NCBI GenBank assembly: GCA_963837175.1 | Contig: CAWIMJ010000012.1 | Location: forward strand, 1-64,000 | DNA length: 64,000 nt | Direction: 5' to 3' | DNA from: an uncultured Nitrososphaeraceae archaeon | Lineage (GTDB): Archaea; Thermoproteota; Nitrososphaeria; Nitrososphaerales; Nitrososphaeraceae | Shown here: in pieces, positions 1,297-9,402 of the stretch | How positions within the stretch are numbered: the first letter of the stretch is position 1 | Layout: each line of letters opens with the position of its first letter | Notes under the pieces: model-generated | Databases searched by the model: none | Told to the model about the DNA's origin: nothing | The model's input: the letters and a program-made list of their open reading frames with translations, nothing else | Program-made: the position numbers and the translations under genes

Positions 1297-1839
1297 ATGA
1301 CATTCGTCAACTCTATTAATTCTGGCAAGAATACTCCGGACATTATAAACGTGATAATAGAAATTCCAAAGGGAAACAATATCAAATATGAAATTGATGT
1401 TGAAAGTGGATTTCTTTTCGTGAATAGGAAGCTGCCTTCCTCTATGATTTATCCTTGTAATTATGGATTTATTCCAAAGACCAGAGAAAGTAATGGAGAT
1501 CCTGTCGATGTCTTTATACTTGGTGATGATCCGCTACTGCCTATGTCTGTAATTGAAGCTAATCCTATAGGAATTTTATTAACAGAGGATCAAGATGGTA
1601 AGGATTCTAAAATCATAGCAAAGCCTGTTGAAAAAGTTGATGCTACTTATTCTATGTTAACTGATTTGACTGATATTCCCCCAACTATACTAAATACACT
1701 AGAACATTTTGTTCAGCATCATAAGGATTTAGAGAAGGACAAATATGTGAAGATACAGAGATGGGATAATAAAACCCTTGCAAAGAAAATCATCTCCGAA
1801 GCTATCAGCAGATATGATATATTTATGAAAACTCAATAA
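1297..1839 (+). CDS. ppa: Family I inorganic pyrophosphatase with atypical active-site residues
   Basis: IEIPKG..KYE, YPCNYGFIP, GDPVDV, DQDGKDSKII and HKDLE motifs. Confidence 0.92.
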   Translation: MTFVNSINSGKNTPDIINVIIEIPKGNNIKYEIDVESGFLFVNRKLPSSMIYPCNYGFIPKTRESNGDPVDVFILGDDPLLPMSVIEANPIGILLTEDQDGKDSKIIAKPVEKVDATYSMLTDLTDIPPTILNTLEHFVQHHKDLEKDKYVKIQRWDNKTLAKKIISEAISRYDIFMKTQ

Positions 1840-1882
1840 AATATAAAATCCTGCTACTTTACATTTTTTATTATTATTAGTT

Positions 1883-2329
1883 TTATTTCCTCAAGCCACT
1901 AATGCCTAGCTTGGAAATACGAGGAATACGTGCAACTAATACTGCAAAAGCTATTGCTACTATTGCCATAAACAAGAAACCAAATCCGATTGCCATACCT
2001 ATAGAACATGAGAACCATACACTTGCTGCAGTTGTCAGATTTGTAACTCTTTGATTCGCCTCGCTTTTTAGAATTAATCCAGCTCCAAGAAATCCTATTC
2101 CTGTGAGAATTTGAGCAGCAATTCTTGATGTTGAGTTTGGATCTACATGAGCAGATAAATATGTAAAGATCATAGAGCCTCCTATTACAAAAGCATGAGT
2201 ACTTATTCCAGCAGGTTTATCTTTAGATTCCCTTTCAAGACCTATTAAGAAGCCGGCAAGTAATGATAAACCTAAACCAACTAAGAAATCATAATTAAGG
2301 CCTTTAAAAAAATCTAAATTCTCATGCAT
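1883..2329 (-). CDS. MgtC/SapB family membrane protein
   Basis: IGLERE..KPAGISTH, RIAAQILTGIGFLGAG and LTTAASVW signatures. Confidence 0.93.
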   Translation of the reverse strand: MHENLDFFKGLNYDFLVGLGLSLLAGFLIGLERESKDKPAGISTHAFVIGGSMIFTYLSAHVDPNSTSRIAAQILTGIGFLGAGLILKSEANQRVTNLTTAASVWFSCSIGMAIGFGFLFMAIVAIAFAVLVARIPRISKLGISGLRK

Positions 2330-2775
2330 ATCTGCCCAATGATTAGTTAGTATAGTTGGCTTATATTAAAAATCATTCGAATCATCTTTCTTAAGAGTTA
2401 CTCGCAAATAGATAAAGTGTGAATAATTATATAGATAATAGAAAGTTCTAATAATCTATACTAGATTGCAATGACTGACCTAATCTTAACCATGATCTTT
2501 CTATTGCACTAGTTCTGCTGCTATGACATCGAAACGTCGGCCACACTAAGACTTATTAATCCTGTAATTACAATCATAAATCTGTTAGAATCTATCTTAT
2601 TTCTGCAAAAATTGAGATGTCTAATTATGCAGTAGATCTAATGAATAGATTACTTTTTCTCTATGCTCTACAAAATAGCACTTTATTTTCAATATTCTTA
2701 ATTTTCTATTTTATAAAAATTTCCTACTGATATCAGTGAATAGTAATTTTGAAATTTTATAAAGTTATACATGAC

Positions 2776-3492
2776 TCATATTATATTAGAATCAGTAGCT
2801 TTGCTGATTCTGTCTTGCAATTCTGAATTAATTTCGACTACTGTTCGATTGCCGTTTATAGGTACAATGCCATATGGTTTTTGCATTCTCTGAAATTCCT
2901 TTCCAATCAGTCTCTGATATTTTAAAAAGGATTCTAACATATCTTCTGAGAGCCTAAGATCTGCTCCTGATTCGTAATAGTCAAGTGATGAGTTCTTTTG
3001 AAAGACTCTATGCACAAGCTCATTTGGATCGACATCAAGATAATATACTAGATCAGGTTTGACAGCAAAACCAAATAGATTGTGTGACCATCTTCTACTT
3101 ATTCCTCTGACTGCATCTCTTGCCATGAGGGTATAGATATATCTATCAGCAAGTACAATATAACCAGCACGCAAAGCTGGTACTATTTTATTTTCAAGCT
3201 GATCGGCAAAGTCAGCAGCATAAAACAGACTTAATGTTCTCTTTCCAAGCATTAAATTTCTTTTTGCCTCAAGTATACCTTCGCCTATCAATTCTGATCT
3301 TCTCAAACCAGTATTCACAACAGCATGACCATTTGCTTCAAGATGAGAAGTTATCATTGTAATTTGTGTACTTCTACCTGAAGCATCAGGACCTTCTATA
3401 ACAATTAATCTACCTTTGATTTCAGTGTCCTCTAGATATGATATCCCGTTACCATAGTACCTAATTGATCTGGAACTAATTGGCTTTATCAT
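2776..3492 (-). CDS. Thymidylate-kinase-like protein B (degenerate P-loop GPDASGRST)
   Basis: LIVIEG P-loop, ADFADQ, VLADRY and KPDLVYYLD motifs; start overlaps the upstream stop (ATGA at 3489-3492). Confidence 0.88.
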   Translation of the reverse strand: MIKPISSRSIRYYGNGISYLEDTEIKGRLIVIEGPDASGRSTQITMITSHLEANGHAVVNTGLRRSELIGEGILEAKRNLMLGKRTLSLFYAADFADQLENKIVPALRAGYIVLADRYIYTLMARDAVRGISRRWSHNLFGFAVKPDLVYYLDVDPNELVHRVFQKNSSLDYYESGADLRLSEDMLESFLKYQRLIGKEFQRMQKPYGIVPINGNRTVVEINSELQDRISKATDSNII

Positions 3493-4214
3493 ATAGGGGT
3501 TTTTGCATTTGCATTTGTTGCACTCTTTATAATGTTGTGCTGTCTTATTGTCTTTGGCTGTGGTTGTAATATTTCGATAATTTTTTGTCTAACTAATTGT
3601 TGCTGTTCTTCAATATCTGATCTACCATCTATTACTGTAAATCCTTCAGACTCTATCATAGATTCATATTGATCTACGATCCTACTTTGAAAGATTCTAT
3701 AGCTTTCATACGGATCATTGCTTAAATTCAAATCCATACCAGCTTCATAATACTTTAACTTAGGACGACCAGATAATATTCTTTCAATTGCAATATCAAC
3801 GGGTATCCTGAAATAAAATACAATATCCGGCTTTACAGCAAAGTTGTAGATTTTACAAATCCATTTAGGGCTGCAGCCCCTAACCATATCTCTAGCATAT
3901 GCAGTATATACATATCTATCAGCCAACACCATATAACCTGCACGGAGCAAAGGGAAAATATTTCTCTCATATCGATCAGCAAAATCTGTTGCATGGAGAA
4001 GAGAAAATGTAGTGGGCGTAAGCGTACCCTTTTTCTTACCTTTAGATGTTATCTCTTTAACTGTTTCAGACGAATTCCATTCAGTCAAGAAAACAGGTAA
4101 CATCTTGAATTTTAACCACTTCTCAACAAGTCGAATTTGTGTTGATTTTCCAGATCCATCTATGCCCTCAACTACGATGAGTTTACCACTTACTTCAAAT
4201 TTCTTTTCATTCAT
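3489..4214 (-). CDS. Thymidylate-kinase-like protein A (intact P-loop GIDGSGKST)
   Basis: P-loop, VLADRY and KPDIVFYF motifs; paralogous to the adjacent gene. Confidence 0.9.
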   Translation of the reverse strand: MNEKKFEVSGKLIVVEGIDGSGKSTQIRLVEKWLKFKMLPVFLTEWNSSETVKEITSKGKKKGTLTPTTFSLLHATDFADRYERNIFPLLRAGYMVLADRYVYTAYARDMVRGCSPKWICKIYNFAVKPDIVFYFRIPVDIAIERILSGRPKLKYYEAGMDLNLSNDPYESYRIFQSRIVDQYESMIESEGFTVIDGRSDIEEQQQLVRQKIIEILQPQPKTIRQHNIIKSATNANAKTPI

Positions 4215-5054
4215 TCCAGTTTCCTGTCATAGATTTATGATAATACCTATCAAGTTCGAAATATGAATAATAGTTCTCTGAATCTGTATAGCAACTAGGT
4301 TTGCTCCAAGATGAATATATCTTTCTATTATATATTGACTACTACCGTTGTTTACTTCATCATAGTTGTTCTCAAAAATCAAATGTGCTTCCTATTCTCC
4401 TCTTCTTTTTATGGGCAATGATTTGGAATCTCTATATAACATATCCCAATTTTCATTATACATGAGTAAACTTTTTGACATCTATTTTCTTTAATTCACT
4501 ATAATTGGAAGCTTAAAATGATTTACCGCAATAAAATATATAGTATTAGTTATCAATATAGAATTATATAGTAAATATAGTTCTTCTTTATATGAACACT
4601 ATGCCAATCTAAAGAATAGCCGTTAAAAGTAGTTTGTTATTGAACACTATCGCTTAAGTATATTGTGTTCATTTCAATTACTGTGATAATACTACGATCA
4701 TACTACTATCTTTGCTATCAGAAACTTGAGTTTGGGTTGATGGTGGGACTCCATAGAATTATTGGATCGGGAATAGAGTTATTAATTTCATGAAGTATTC
4801 CAATCAACCACAATTTGTAATATAGTTAGATTTACAAATAAAAACTTCTTCTACATAAAATAACGGTAATATATAGTCTTCAATATAGAACCATATAGTC
4901 TATAAGGTTACATGTGATAATGATGATAAGATAACCTACATAAAATAGCAAGCTAAATAATAATACTAGTCCTTTAATTCAAGGGAATATAGAGTTTCTA
5001 AACTATGGGCATTTGAGAATTGCATGACAGATCAATAGCAGTCTGCTAAAGTAA

Positions 5055-6431
5055 CTATTCATTTTCCTTTTCATTAACTGCAGTTAATTTGACTTTGGCT
5101 TTAATTCTTTCTGGAATGGTAGAGAGGCCAATGCATGCGGCAATTTTCTTAATAGATTTTTTATCCTGTGATTTTAAGATCTGTCTATATCTTATAAATA
5201 ACCGTTTTGCAGTGTTTGGCTTTCTTGTATAAATTATAGATAATGCCAAAAGCACCTGCTCTCTATGACTAAGATCTCTAATATCTTTGTCCATGATCGT
5301 ATAGAACATATTTTCTAGATCGGCAGTCAGCGTTATTTCCGACATCTCTTTTATCGCATGAGCAAGGATCTTATATTCCTGTTTCTTAATTAATCCTGCG
5401 AAAGTCAAAGGCTTTACGGGAGAATAAATGCTTTCTGGAATTATTTCTGGCTTACAACTAACCCTTAAGAAATTTTGAATTTGATCTTTATTGATGTTTT
5501 CTGTGTAGAATGGCGTGGGAAATTCCAAAAATGATGAAAGGACTCCTTCTCTAAGTCCATGAGTACTTATAACGATCTTTCCAAAGGCAAGTTTCCGCAT
5601 TAGCATATTAATTACACATGAACCTGCAGTAATTGTTTCTGCTCTATTGCTACCAATAGCATCAATTCTTGCTATCTGACATGGTGTCATTTTGAAAAGT
5701 CTTCTACTAATACATTCAATTGACTCATAGTCAATATTATAATTATGAATCTTATCAAGCGCATAGTTTTTGATCTCTTGATCATATCCTGCTATAGATC
5801 TTAATGTACCTCCAACACCAATAAGCGTAGCCTCGGTAATCTTGCCAAGTTCTTTACTGCTAGGGAGAGTTTTGAGTATGTGACTCTGCATTCTCAGATA
5901 ATTCTTCTTAGAATATGGACCGTCTTCTCTACTGTAAATTTGCGACAGCCTTAGTGAACCTAAGGGTAATGACATAAATTGCTTAATCCTAAAATTTTCT
6001 GTATATACTATCTCCAGACTACCACCGCCAAGATCAAAAAAGACAGCAGTTGGAATACATGTAGATTTTATTGCTCCTAGGTAAGAAAAGAGTGCCTCTT
6101 CCTTCCCAGATAATACTCTAAATTGGAATCTTGTCTTTTCATAAACTTCTCTGAGAAAGTCATCTTTATTAGCTGCTTCTCTAACTGCACTTGTTGCCAC
6201 AGCTACGACATAATTTATCGACTGAAAATTAATTTTATCGCGGAACAATTTTAAAGCATTGATTGTGCTATTTATCGATTCTCTACTTAGAAGGCCTGTT
6301 TCTCTTAGGTTTGCGCCTAGTCTGACTCTTATTCCTTGTTGTTCATATGCTTTGTAAGAGTTATCAGTATTTACATAATAATTAACTAATTTAAGTGAAT
6401 TGAAACCAAGATTTATCACTGATATTTTCAA
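5055..6431 (-). CDS. ppx: Ppx/GppA exopolyphosphatase family protein
   Basis: ATSAVREA, SGKEEA, FDLGGGSLE, GVGGTLR and GLREG motifs; likely start is TTG at 6431 (the ORF-track extension to 6548 overlaps sixA). Confidence 0.9.
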   Translation of the reverse strand: MKISVINLGFNSLKLVNYYVNTDNSYKAYEQQGIRVRLGANLRETGLLSRESINSTINALKLFRDKINFQSINYVVAVATSAVREAANKDDFLREVYEKTRFQFRVLSGKEEALFSYLGAIKSTCIPTAVFFDLGGGSLEIVYTENFRIKQFMSLPLGSLRLSQIYSREDGPYSKKNYLRMQSHILKTLPSSKELGKITEATLIGVGGTLRSIAGYDQEIKNYALDKIHNYNIDYESIECISRRLFKMTPCQIARIDAIGSNRAETITAGSCVINMLMRKLAFGKIVISTHGLREGVLSSFLEFPTPFYTENINKDQIQNFLRVSCKPEIIPESIYSPVKPLTFAGLIKKQEYKILAHAIKEMSEITLTADLENMFYTIMDKDIRDLSHREQVLLALSIIYTRKPNTAKRLFIRYRQILKSQDKKSIKKIAACIGLSTIPERIKAKVKLTAVNEKENE

Positions 6432-6528
6432 AGTTTTATGTATGACTCCGTCGATGGTTTTAATAGCCAGATATAAGATGTATTGACTACTTAACGTATT
6501 TTTACCTATTGTATATAGATAATATAGT

Positions 6529-7036
6529 TCATTTTGATAACATATCACTCAATAGTTTTGGTGTTAACAACCATCTCAATTCACCCTGAAACTTTGGTGT
6601 TGAAGATATTATTCTAATCCTTGCCAATCCTGATTTCTTTAGAGCTATTCTTCCACCATCATTTCCGTCAAATATGATTTCACTTACCATCTTGCTGAGA
6701 TAGGGTTCGTGACCTACAACAAGTACTAATGACTGCTGTTTGAGGTGAGATAGTTTATTATAAAGATCTATCCGATTACCTTCAGGTGACAATTCATCCC
6801 AATCCTGCATTTTTTTTTCGATCTTTAATGTCTTGGCTACTATTGCTGCCTGTTTGATGAGCACGTTTCAAGGGACTAGTGATAACAACATCAAATTTAG
6901 TTCCTAATTCCTTCAGTGACTTTGCTATATCTGAAACCTCTTTTTGACCTGCAGTGGTAAGTGACCGTTGGAAGTCACCTCTTCCTGTGGAGACTCTTTG
7001 TCCGGCTTCACCATGCCGTAGAATGAATAGATCCAA
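6529..7036 (-). pseudogene. sixA: Phosphohistidine phosphatase SixA split by a 1-nt insertion near 6849 (may be a sequencing error)
   Basis: LRHGEA and SPLKRAHQT in 6794..7036; LVVGHEP and LRWLLTP in 6529..6864; removing one G gives QTAAIVA. Confidence 0.85.
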
Positions 7037-7291
7037 TTATTATCACTACTTGAAGTGGGTAATTATCATGTGATAAATATATACTTCTCTCTAAAGTCAC
7101 TCCACTTGTAATGAGTTAATATTAGATGTAAATAGTAAGGAAAAATAAAAAATCTGAAGTAATTTTAAAAACAAAAATGTGATATAAAGAAGAACTATAT
7201 TTAATATATAATTCTATATTGATAACTAACTATATATTTCATTGCGGGAAATCATTTCAGGCTTCCAGTTATAGTGAATTAAAGAATATAG

Positions 7292-8335
7292 ATGTCATTA
7301 TTGAACAATTATAAAAACGACGACGAAAACAAGCAGGTCACAACTTTTGAAATATTATCTGAACAACAAGAAAAAGTAAATGAAAAAGAATTCATTAAAT
7401 TAAAAATCTATAAATCTGAGATAGATAAAGCAATTGGGAATTTAAAAGAACTTAAGAAAGTAAACCAATATATGAACTTGACTACAAGATTATAGGCTCT
7501 GTAAAGTTAAGATAACAGATTATTGTTATGATGACTAACAAATAGATTCAACCATTTCTGTACGTGTTTCAATTTACATTTACTTTTTCTACAAGGAAAA
7601 TAATCATCGAAATGCTTCGTTCTACTATCTTTGATAAACTGTATCATTCTTTCTCTATGATACTTTTCTCATATCTGGAATGGATATGATGATGGTGCAG
7701 TCTCAAGAACCTGCAAGCCTGTGGATGGATACCATGTACCTCTCCATATCAGTTGAAACAGGATGTTCTCTCCATATCTTTTTACAAGGTTTAATATAAA
7801 ACGCTCTGCAACAAACATGTTTCTCTCCTTTGATATGCTTATTTGAAGAATTTCTCGGTTATCATCTTCAATGGCTATCTATAACCAGATATATTCGGAA
7901 CCAACTTTAATGATAGTTTCATCAATTATAAACTCGGTAATACGTATCTTTCTGGAACTTAACATCTCTGGTTTGTATTTTTGAATCCAATCTCTTATGG
8001 CAGTATGGCTCCTTTTAATAAATCTAGATACAGCTTTGGATGTATTTCTTAATGATAGACCAAGGAAATAAAGATACAGAAAGAGAATATGCTATATCCT
8101 CAGGTTCTGTTCTCTTCCTTATCTGACATATCATAAACTATATCGGAAACATAAAGCTATAGATTTTTCCTTAACTTTACAGAGCCAGATTATAGTAGAT
8201 CGTTATACAGATACAATATTGGACGATTATGGCGGGTATGAAACTCTTAAGCAGACAAAACTATCTACCGATCAAAGTTTTGTGTTGGAAAGAGATGAAG
8301 TTATAAAAGATTCTGCATATAAAGGAAAGAGTTAA
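7292..8335 (+). pseudogene. Hypothetical gene interrupted by an IS6-like element
   Basis: Removing the IS and one TSD copy, plus one A restored near 7463, gives a continuous frame ...KPIYELDYKIIVDRYTDTILDDYGGYETLKQ...KGKS stop at 8335. Confidence 0.6.
7495..8186 (-). mobile_element. IS6-family insertion sequence with decayed transposase
   Basis: Perfect 17-bp TIRs GGCTCTGTAAAGTTAAG (7495-7511 and 8170-8186); 8-bp TSD AGATTATA; minus strand reads LYFLGLSLRNTSKAVSRFIKRSHTAIRDWIQKY...IIDETIIKVG with stops and frameshifts. Confidence 0.92.
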
Positions 8336-8363: not shown

Positions 8364-9402
8364 TTGTCCAAATATAATACTACCAATCGTAATATTAGTC
8401 TACATGAATATTATAGAATTTTTTCATTAATAACAATAGTGTTTATTATTACTATATCTATAATGATCTCCTATTCTACAGTAAGTGCATTTGATCAAGC
8501 TAAAGAATATGTATTTGTTAAAAAATGGGGATCAGAAGGAACAGCTGATGGTCAATTTCAGCGGCCACATGACTTAGATTTTGATCCTGCAGAAAAGTAT
8601 CTATACACCCTTGATAGAGATGGTGCTCGCGTACAGGTATTTGATAAAAATGGAACTTTCATAAATAAATGGGGATCTATGGGTATTGGAGATGGCCAAT
8701 TTAATATACCTTATGGAGTAGATGTTGATTCTCAAGGTAATGTTTGGGTTGCTGATAGAGATAATCATCGTATTCAAAAATTCGATAGTGAGGGAAACTT
8801 CCTTTTAAAATTTGGTTCAGAAGGTAGTGGTGATGGCCAATTTAAGAGCCCTAGGCAAGTTGCGGTAGACAAAGATTTAAAGTTCGTTTATGTTGCAGAT
8901 TCAAACAACGATCGTATTCAAAAATTTGACATTAATGGTAATTTTATAAAAAGTTGGGGATCTATGGGAACTGGAGACGGCCAATTTGATAAGCCTGTTT
9001 CTGTGATAATTGATTCAAAAGGAAATATAATAGTAAATGATAGAGGCAATCTTAGAGTTCAAAAATTCGATAGTGAGGGAAACTTCCTTTTAAAATTTGG
9101 TTCAGAAGGTAGTGGTGATGGCCAATTCTCCCATTTTGAGCATATGGCTGTCGACAAATACGATAACATATATGTTAACGATCCACAATCAGATAAAACT
9201 GGTAGTGGCATACCACGTGTCCAAAAATTTGACACTAACGGAAATTTCATTACAAAATGGGGATCATATGGGTACTGGAGACGGCCAATTTATAGACCCA
9301 GAACATCTTGCTATAGATTCAGAAGGATATGTTTATGTTTCTGATAAAGGAAATAATAATATTCAAGTATTCAAACCTATAGATAATGTGCCTCATAAAT
9401 AA
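8364..9402 (+). CDS. Membrane-anchored or secreted NHL-repeat beta-propeller; frameshift near 9270
   Basis: Six WGS.G.GDGQF..P..v.vD..g..yV.D..N.RIQKFD repeats; N-terminal hydrophobic helix; last blade lies in the 9097..9402 frame. Confidence 0.9.
8773..9127 (+). repeat. Exact 70-bp internal direct repeat in the NHL gene (8773-8842 = 9058-9127)
   Basis: Identical nucleotides, offset 285 nt (95 codons, two blades). Confidence 0.9.

Follow-up and report, generated by a model that had tools for sequence, protein, structure and literature searches.

A probable PPK3-type polyphosphate kinase pair annotated as thymidylate kinases in a Nitrososphaeraceae archaeon

The window's pair and the described polyphosphate kinases

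The closest described system to the two genes considered here is the family-3 polyphosphate kinase (PPK3) of Sulfolobus acidocaldarius. It is a heteromeric enzyme whose genes are annotated as thymidylate kinase and adjoin ppx and sixA (PMC12995831, JBC 2026; preprint 10.1101/2024.08.28.610084, bioRxiv 2024). We analyzed a stretch of 64,000 nucleotides (the window) from an uncultured Nitrososphaeraceae archaeon, in which two overlapping genes on the minus strand, c (4214–3489) and r (3492–2776), very probably encode both subunits, cPPK3 and rPPK3, of an enzyme of this family. The window has a G+C content of approximately 32% and is contig C12 (CAWIMJ010000012.1, positions 1 to 64,000) of a 3.81-Mb genome in 58 contigs (assembly GCA_963837175.1; 91.5% complete). 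The assignment is based on family membership, conservation, synteny, a separate canonical thymidylate kinase gene (tmk) and a predicted c:r interface.

According to the main text of PMC12995831, Saci_2019 (cPPK3) synthesizes polyphosphate (polyP) from ATP and has no dTMP kinase activity. Saci_2020 (rPPK3) is inactive alone and stimulates cPPK3, with a maximum at 1:1. The complex, SaPPK3, behaves as α2β2. The reaction is reversible, with an approximately 50-fold preference for making ATP from polyP and ADP, and polyP is synthesized only with an ATP-recycling system. The same text describes a polyP cleft whose basic residues are conserved in cPPK3 and lost in rPPK3, and treats STK_15430 of S. 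tokodaii (PDB 2plr/5h70) as a cPPK3 homologue. Both the paper and its preprint describe the arginine of the DRX motif as replaced or absent "in rPPK3s", and give this as the cause of the inactivity. The main archaeal PPK3 carriers named in PMC12995831 are Nitrososphaeraceae and Sulfolobaceae. For PPK1, PPK2 and PPK3, its Data S1 marks Nitrosocosmicus franklandus as 0, 0 and 1; the marks of N. hydrocola, N. oleophilus and Nitrososphaera evergladensis are 0, 1 and 1.

A heteromeric polyP kinase of this type is therefore already in print, with Nitrososphaeraceae already named as carriers, and the role of PPK3 as the polyphosphate kinase that had been missing from Crenarchaeota and Nitrososphaeraceae is likewise published. 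The points of remaining interest are secondary ones: the common form of r, which is unlike the Sulfolobus r; the co-existence of PPK3 and PPK2; the frequency of the pair in soil bacteria; and the misnaming as dTMP kinases. A further likeness exists in the two-domain class II PPK2 enzymes, represented by PA3455 of P. aeruginosa. As described in the main text of PMC12995831, they join a P-loop kinase module that is active to a paralogous one that is inactive and serves for oligomerization, and they also prefer polyP-driven nucleotide phosphorylation; however, they belong to another family, form one fused chain instead of being encoded by two genes, and act on AMP/GMP rather than ADP.

The c and r genes (3489–4214 and 2776–3492) encode 241 and 238 residues, respectively. 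They overlap by ATGA, which is read directly as the ATG of r at 3492–3490 and the TGA of c at 3491–3489. Read along the minus strand as transcribed, the order is sixA, ppx, a spacer of 840 bp, c and r, and then a gap of 446 bp and mgtC. No open reading frame longer than 54 amino acids lies in the spacer. The gene names of the locus are confirmed by Pfam and NCBIfam profiles. The exopolyphosphatase gene ppx (5055–6548, minus strand) matches PF02541 with 165 bits and TIGR03706 with 250 bits; its true start is probably downstream of 6548, since the Ppx domain starts near residue 42. The histidine-phosphatase family gene sixA (6529–7036, minus strand) consists of two overlapping frames, 6794–7036 and 6529–6864, and TIGR00249 matches its N-terminal half with 53.6 bits and its C-terminal half with 33.2 bits. 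The initial annotation placed an overlapping pair of thymidylate-kinase-fold genes between ppx-sixA and mgtC-ppa, and all of these elements are found in that arrangement.

This layout agrees with that of SaPPK3 in that adjacent dTMP-kinase-fold paralogues, c-then-r, lie by ppx and sixA, with a separate canonical tmk in the genome. It differs in that a CHAD protein is encoded outside the window's locus, on contig C40 (C40:972–1583), and that PPK2 is also present in the genome. The organism is presumably mesophilic, because its DNA appears in soil and rhizosphere metagenome runs.

Separation from thymidylate kinases and conserved neighbourhood

In sequence searches of the PDB, c matches 2plr/5h70 with an E value of 1.6e-64 (220.8 bits), as compared with 1.5e-13 for the best canonical thymidylate kinase (TMK), and r matches 2plr with 8.6e-40. 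The matched protein is STK_15430 of Sulfurisphaera tokodaii (PDB 2plr, 4nzy, 4rzx and 5h70), the closest solved structure to both c and r. It was deposited as "dTMP kinase" and, unlike the window's pair, represents a c-type subunit solved without an r partner; the PDB searches with c and r gave no heteromer structure. Locus L048 (genome G283) encodes the full 2plr sequence (467 bits, residues 1–213 of 213), and this identity defines family f21 of our genome sets as Sulfolobaceae. Within the window, r is 40% identical to c. The PPK2 profile PF03976 has no match to c or r at E ≤ 0.01.

The possibility that c and r are ordinary or specialized dTMP (nucleoside-monophosphate) kinases, with ppx adjacent only incidentally, should be considered here. 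Both proteins score above the cut-offs of PF02223 and TIGR00041, the PDB entries of the closest solved relative carry the title dTMP kinase, and an earlier report described the S. tokodaii protein as an unusual thymidylate kinase, according to the discussion of 10.1101/2024.08.28.610084. However, the PF02223 search of the genome gives three matches over the cut-off, and the best of them is neither c nor r. It is the separate canonical tmk for which the initial annotation proposed to look, and it lies on another contig (C46:86299–86835). It scores 114.3 bits with PF02223 and 108 bits with TIGR00041, as compared with 77.7 and 90.4 bits for c and 76.3 and 84.1 bits for r, and is 22–24% identical to the two. 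Each of five other genomes likewise has exactly one canonical tmk in addition to c and r. The characterized homologues also speak against dTMP phosphorylation: neither Saci_2019 nor Saci_2020 formed dTDP, whereas Saci_0893, the real dTMP kinase, did, as given in the main text of PMC12995831.

The dTMP-binding segment points in the same direction. Canonical dTMP kinases share the P-loop kinase fold, the DRX motif, the lid and the TIGR00041/PF02223 match with c and r. They differ in having the dTMP-binding segment, which is present in 6/6 canonical tmk as [KQR]EP in three Sulfolobaceae and as FPDY[ST]T in three Nitrososphaerales. Where the canonical enzymes have [KQR]EP or FP-x-x-ST after strand 2, c reads TEWNSS and r reads TGLRRS. 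These replacements, together with the lids YYEAGMDL (c) and YYESGADL (r), had been pointed out before and are confirmed in the translations. In the three Nitrososphaerales genomes (loci L001, L059 and L061), the canonical tmk has NRY instead of DRY and a GxDKAGK-like P-loop along with the FPDY[ST]T segment.

We built a quick IQ-TREE phylogeny of 86 rows (40 c, 40 r and 6 canonical tmk, with PPK2 sequences left out). Its 40 loci were hand-picked from 134 with a c row for breadth across the groups. The 80 c and r rows split from the six canonical tmk with a support of 99 in the Shimodaira–Hasegawa-like approximate likelihood ratio test (SH-aLRT), and the canonical tmk form a clade of their own (99). 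The comparison with dTMP kinases that the initial annotation called for thus sets c and r apart from them. All 40 r rows lie on one side of a branch (SH-aLRT 87), and a clade of 27 rows (99) unites the r of Sulfolobaceae, the r of Nitrososphaerales and seven bacterial r. The grouping of the c subtree mirrors that of the r subtree. The window's c is found in a c clade with the Sulfolobaceae c, and its r in the r clade, so that the subunits of both organisms share clades. A single origin of r, and hence orthology of the window's r with the Saci_2020-type r, is favoured, though not proven, by these sequence comparisons. The shared derived residues of the two r groups decide nothing, with two columns for and one against a common r.

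By blastp with the window's proteins, we compared the neighbourhood of the pair in named loci, the best 80 of at least 599 matching stretches in the GTDB species set. By title, 18 of these loci are archaeal and 62 are bacterial, the latter including Acidobacteriota, Verrucomicrobiota and Nitrospirota. The r gene adjoins c, in the order c-then-r, in 77/80 loci, archaeal and bacterial. The three loci without r are L111, which ends at c, and L072 and L073, which come from one metagenome-assembled genome. A ppx gene lies within 6 kb of c in 61/80 loci, and sixA is found in 40/80. With a single blastp query, a CHAD homologue was found in 27/99 loci, and it stands directly after r in the same-genus genome G041. 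This count is a lower bound, because none was found in the 12 Sulfolobaceae loci, though the main text of PMC12995831 reports one in that operon. In L072, CHAD stands directly after c. At the six canonical-tmk loci, ppx, sixA, CHAD and PPK2 were found in none, with flanks of only 1.5 kb in five of the six.

The suggested co-occurrence with ppx, sixA and CHAD is thus borne out. The same cannot be said of mgtC and ppa, which had been regarded as part of the polyP locus: they occur in 1/80 and 0/80 related loci, respectively, and are not beside the pair in G041, which marks them as chance neighbours. A linkage to ppx, sixA and CHAD that is conserved across archaea and bacteria stands against the dTMP kinase explanation, as do the replaced segment and the better-scoring tmk elsewhere in the genome, and we regard that explanation as very improbable. 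Instead, the sequences, the tree, the synteny and the separate canonical tmk support the initial proposal, namely that a catalytic and a regulatory subunit, both annotated as tmk, make up a heteromeric polyP kinase.

Among 61 family genomes, the matches to c fall into c orthologues (67–92% identity), r (34–42%, mostly adjoining c) and canonical tmk (22–31%). In a 401-genome sample of the phylum, the pair is present in 12/56 genomes of the sister family f2 and in 14/15 of Sulfolobaceae (f21). On the bacterial side, a c orthologue is found in 45/301 sampled genomes of the phylum of G459, an Acidobacteriota genome that contains locus L100 (E ≤ 1e-50; 44/300 without the unpublished G613). In soil bacteria, PPK3 is thus far more widespread than the phrase "a few scattered bacteria" would imply. 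G459 itself has two c-r pairs (C4:180295–181598 and C8:87530–88629) and five PF02223 matches. In G528, G704, G644, G589, G674, G498, G499 and G755, all of the phylum of G459, the open frame around the c match is 569–845 amino acids long. Such long frames could result from fusion, perhaps to ppx or r, or could merely lack stop codons.

The naming of these genes is also affected. Among the matches of c, r and the L048 c in NCBIfam release 20.0, there is no PPK3 model. Since TIGR00041 scores c and r above its cut-off, genomes are presumably still labelled with three thymidylate kinases.

Subunit residues, predicted complex and proposed reaction

Residues were compared in an alignment of 128 c, 119 r and 6 tmk rows, some of which come from the same genomes and are not all independent. 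The window's c has the Walker A motif GIDGSGKST, TEWNSS, a KGKKKG basic patch, DRY and the lid GRPKLKYYEAGMD. Its r has the Walker A motif GPDASGRST, TGLRRS, an intact DRY (ADRY), the lid LDYYESGAD and an N-terminal arm of approximately 25 residues (YYGNGISYL). An intact P-loop in one protein, a Lys-to-Arg change in the other and DRY in both had been read from the sequence initially, and the translations bear this out. The Walker-A lysine, TEWNSS, DRY and the basic patch in c, and the lack in r of the conserved basic residues of c, are features shared with SaPPK3.

In the c rows, the Walker-A lysine is present in 127/128, the remaining row being truncated, and the DRX arginine in 128/128. In the r rows, the Walker-A position is Arg in 116/119. 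The r rows outside Sulfolobaceae, from Nitrososphaerales and bacteria, have this arginine in 107/107 and the DRX arginine in 106/107. Contrarily, the DRX arginine is replaced by Gly in all 12 Sulfolobaceae r rows, nine of which have Arg and three Lys at the Walker-A position. The window's r follows the former pattern at both positions and in this respect differs from the Sulfolobus r. Because only the 12 Sulfolobaceae rows have Gly, we take loss of the DRX arginine to characterize the Sulfolobaceae branch rather than the whole family.

Nine basic residues of c (K53, K58, K61, R81, R136, K154, R173, R178 and R209) are conserved in the c rows and not in the r rows. At these positions, Lys or Arg occupies at least 85% of the 128 c rows and less than 50% of the 107 non-Sulfolobaceae r rows. 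Judging from the alignment, the nine positions appear to match the polyP cleft as PMC12995831 describes it in its main text.

The N-terminal arm of r should also be noted. We defined it by an aromatic pair ([FYW][FYW]G-like) 9–30 residues ahead of the P-loop. By this definition, the arm is present in the r of f1 (22/25), f2 (5/6), the named archaeal loci (15/16) and the bacterial loci (47/58), and its motif in Nitrososphaerales and bacteria is [FY][FY]G-x-G-[LI]-P-like. It is present in 1/48 c rows. In contrast to the window's r, the Sulfolobaceae r have only 6–12 residues ahead of the P-loop, and the arm is found in 0/12. Term searches of the main texts of PMC12995831 and 10.1101/2024.08.28.610084, which cover the articles without the supplementary alignments, gave no mention of the Lys-to-Arg change in r or of the arm.

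In the r outside Sulfolobaceae, a near-complete active site (Asp-Arg-Tyr, the lid, the P-loop glycines and the invariant Walker-A arginine) is strictly conserved, which suggests that r still binds something; the conserved arm, which contacts c in the model described below, is present as well. We tentatively raise the possibility, though the odds are rather against it, that this r is a ligand-binding pseudokinase instead of a dead scaffold. The ligand could be ATP or ADP, as in an energy-charge sensor, or the end of a polyP chain, with r then serving in priming or processivity. On this reading, the mainstream PPK3 of soil archaea and bacteria would differ in its regulation from the Sulfolobus enzyme, whose r lost the DRX arginine and the arm. 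By the same residue comparison, the characterized Sulfolobus r looks like an atypical, degenerate representative.

The structure of r was predicted by AlphaFold2 on a 12-row alignment. The model has a mean pLDDT (predicted local distance difference test) value of 84.7 and a predicted template modelling (pTM) score of 0.83, with low confidence at residues 66–80. In Foldseek, its best matches are the S. tokodaii entries (template modelling score 0.90 for 2plr, range 0.90–0.93; root-mean-square deviation 1.8–2.3 Å), followed by canonical TMKs. In co-folding, modelled as a 1:1 pair and not as α2β2, c and r give an ipSAE (interaction score from predicted aligned errors) of 0.75 (median of three runs) versus 0.00 for the best of three controls. 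This mark is reached by 116/157 solved complexes and 2/215 mismatched pairs; as we used our own alignments, these counts hold roughly. The contacts agree to at least 95% between the runs, and the partner pLDDT is at least 84. The predicted interface is formed by residues 51–84 and 113–125 of c and residues 68–101 and 135–142 of r, with the arm residues 14–19 of r in addition. TMKs are homodimers, and the helices of the predicted interface are, we assume, the same as those used in TMK dimers. The heterodimer model proposed initially thus separates clearly from its controls, and this prediction supports, but does not show, that c and r bind each other.

By homology with SaPPK3, the activity, direction, stoichiometry and activation of the window's pair may be outlined as follows. 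The active site would be carried by c, with the Walker-A lysine, the DRY arginine clamp, the lid and the basic cleft for the polyP chain. It would catalyze polyP(n) + ADP ⇌ polyP(n−1) + ATP, where the ATP/ADP ratio would set the direction and ATP formation would be favoured. As a paralogue without the Walker-A lysine, r would bind c and activate it through a hetero-oligomer, which is α2β2 in Sulfolobus. The pair, Ppx and SixA, plus the CHAD protein and the PPK2 encoded elsewhere, would form a set for polyP turnover. The term "polyP-synthesising" used in the initial annotation is then probably half the story: reversibility agrees with it, and the strong preference of the Sulfolobus enzyme for ATP formation does not.

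This preference bears on another explanation, in which c and r are a polyP-dependent nucleotide kinase only, for the regeneration of ATP or another NTP, and polyP is made by another enzyme, for example PPK2. The initial annotation noted that neither ppk1 nor ppk2 is present, which is true of the window; the genome, however, has a PPK2 on contig C17 (C17:55973–56650, 224.6 bits), a contig in the same 30–35% G+C range. PPK1 (PF02503 and PF13090) was found neither in this genome nor in the 61 family genomes (0/61), and PPK2 is present in 39/61 of the latter. PPK3 occurs together with PPK2 in 35 of these genomes, PPK3 alone in nine, PPK2 alone in four and neither in 13. This tally, which includes the unpublished G035 with both (34, 9, 4 and 13 of 60 without it), describes related and partly incomplete genomes and is not a statistical test. 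The expected anti-correlation with ppk2 fails: PPK2 is found in the window's genome and in 35/44 PPK3-bearing family genomes.

Furthermore, PPK2 lies directly beside c in six Acidobacteriota loci (L099, L100, L101, L112, L114 and L116), and 1.4–3 kb from the pair in G013 (C52) and G022 (C61). The presence of PPK2 and PPK3 together in one locus argues for different roles rather than replacement. The frequent PPK2, the six adjoining loci and the approximately 50-fold preference of SaPPK3 towards ATP, with polyP formed only under ATP recycling (PMC12995831, main text), all favour a function in nucleotide phosphorylation only. On the other hand, the Sulfolobus enzyme is reversible. PPK2 is no better candidate for the synthase, because PPK2 enzymes themselves usually prefer polyP use, according to the same text. 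Moreover, neither PPK2 nor PPK1 was found in 9/44 PPK3-bearing family genomes, which would leave PPK3 as the sole known polyP route there. We consider it unlikely, on balance, that the pair serves nucleotide phosphorylation only. A mesophilic pair such as the window's would show how the common PPK3 form is regulated and how the work is divided with PPK2 in ammonia-oxidizing archaea.

Several points weigh against the assignment of c and r to PPK3. The transfer between ATP and polyP, the lack of dTMP kinase activity and the activation of c by r are known from the S. acidocaldarius proteins only. That enzyme belongs to a thermoacidophile; the window's c is 45–51% identical to the characterized-type Sulfolobaceae c, and the r-to-r identity is only 32–37%. 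The window's r keeps the DRX arginine, the residue that PMC12995831 uses to explain the inactivity. A tree that joins the Sulfolobaceae c and r, meaning a separate duplication, is not rejected by the approximately unbiased test (p 0.137). The dTMP-kinase equivalog TIGR00041, with a cut-off of 83.25, scores c (90.4) and r (84.1) just above it. This model does not discriminate PPK3, however, because the S. tokodaii-type c of L048, which is not a dTMP kinase, also passes with 109.4. The c-then-r pair is seen in 25/30 family loci, and r is not beside c in the other five. G049 (L013) has two copies of c, which share 83% and 78% identity with that of the window, and the query used found no r there; G049 and L072/L073 may represent an r-less variant or incomplete assemblies. 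Since the genome has PPK2, its polyP metabolism can be explained without PPK3. Finally, the c:r model may have passed partly through likeness to solved TMK homodimers, because its interface uses the TMK-dimer helices.

Flanking genes, local inversion and the sixA frameshift

The two chance neighbours lie outside the conserved locus. The mgtC gene (1883–2329, minus strand) matches PF02308 with 117.6 bits. The inorganic pyrophosphatase gene ppa (1297–1839, plus strand) matches PF00719 with 167 bits and NF002317 with 206.9 bits.

The ppx-sixA segment is bracketed by a 118-bp inverted repeat, whose arms at 4476–4593, upstream of c, and 7182–7297, upstream of sixA, are 91–93% complementary. In G041, whose c and r are 92% and 95% identical to those of the window, the repeat sequence is single and lies between divergent sixA-ppx and c-r, so that the arm upstream of c duplicates the sixA/c intergenic region. 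Relative to the window, the orientation of the c-r block in G041 is reversed. From this comparison, we infer that an inversion duplicated a shared bidirectional promoter region. Such an event would explain the 840-bp gap between ppx and c, and c-r then probably keep their own promoter instead of being read through from ppx.

The segment 4599–4839 within this gap has no counterpart in G041, and 36-nucleotide direct repeats (4547–4582 and 4874–4909) lie near its ends. It may be a variable insert. A join of 4598 to 4840 in contigs of X1 and X4 was considered as a deletion variant and set aside as too weak, with 24 letters on the shorter side. A scan for promoters and terminators gave 27 promoter-like sites versus 25.4 expected, which is chance level; its consensus is bacterial and uninformative for an archaeon. 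In the soil metatranscriptome X15, contigs with zero mismatches cover 2850–3199 in r and 4042–4371, the 5′ end of c with 157 nucleotides upstream, and a contig with one mismatch covers 6301–6451 in ppx. Assembled contigs from an RNA library, in which DNA may be present, cannot show transcription, strand or level and give no basis for a claim of expression.

An extra base at 6849/6850 breaks the frame of sixA, a point that the initial annotation does not mention. In three soil or rhizosphere DNA runs, each from a different study, the contigs are one base shorter at 6849. The frame without base 6849 is 168 amino acids long and has 85.7% gapless identity to the intact 168-residue SixA of G041. 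Since the three runs lack the base and the frame is restored without it, the frameshift is an assembly error or a strain-private mutation and not a feature of the locus. The nine-A run at 6810–6818 was ruled out as the site of the frameshift, because the run contigs differ at 6849. On the plus strand at 8364–9402, a gene for an NHL-repeat protein is also seemingly split, into the overlapping frames 8364–9344 and 9097–9402. This second frameshift, less than 2.5 kb from sixA, hints at indel errors in the assembly.

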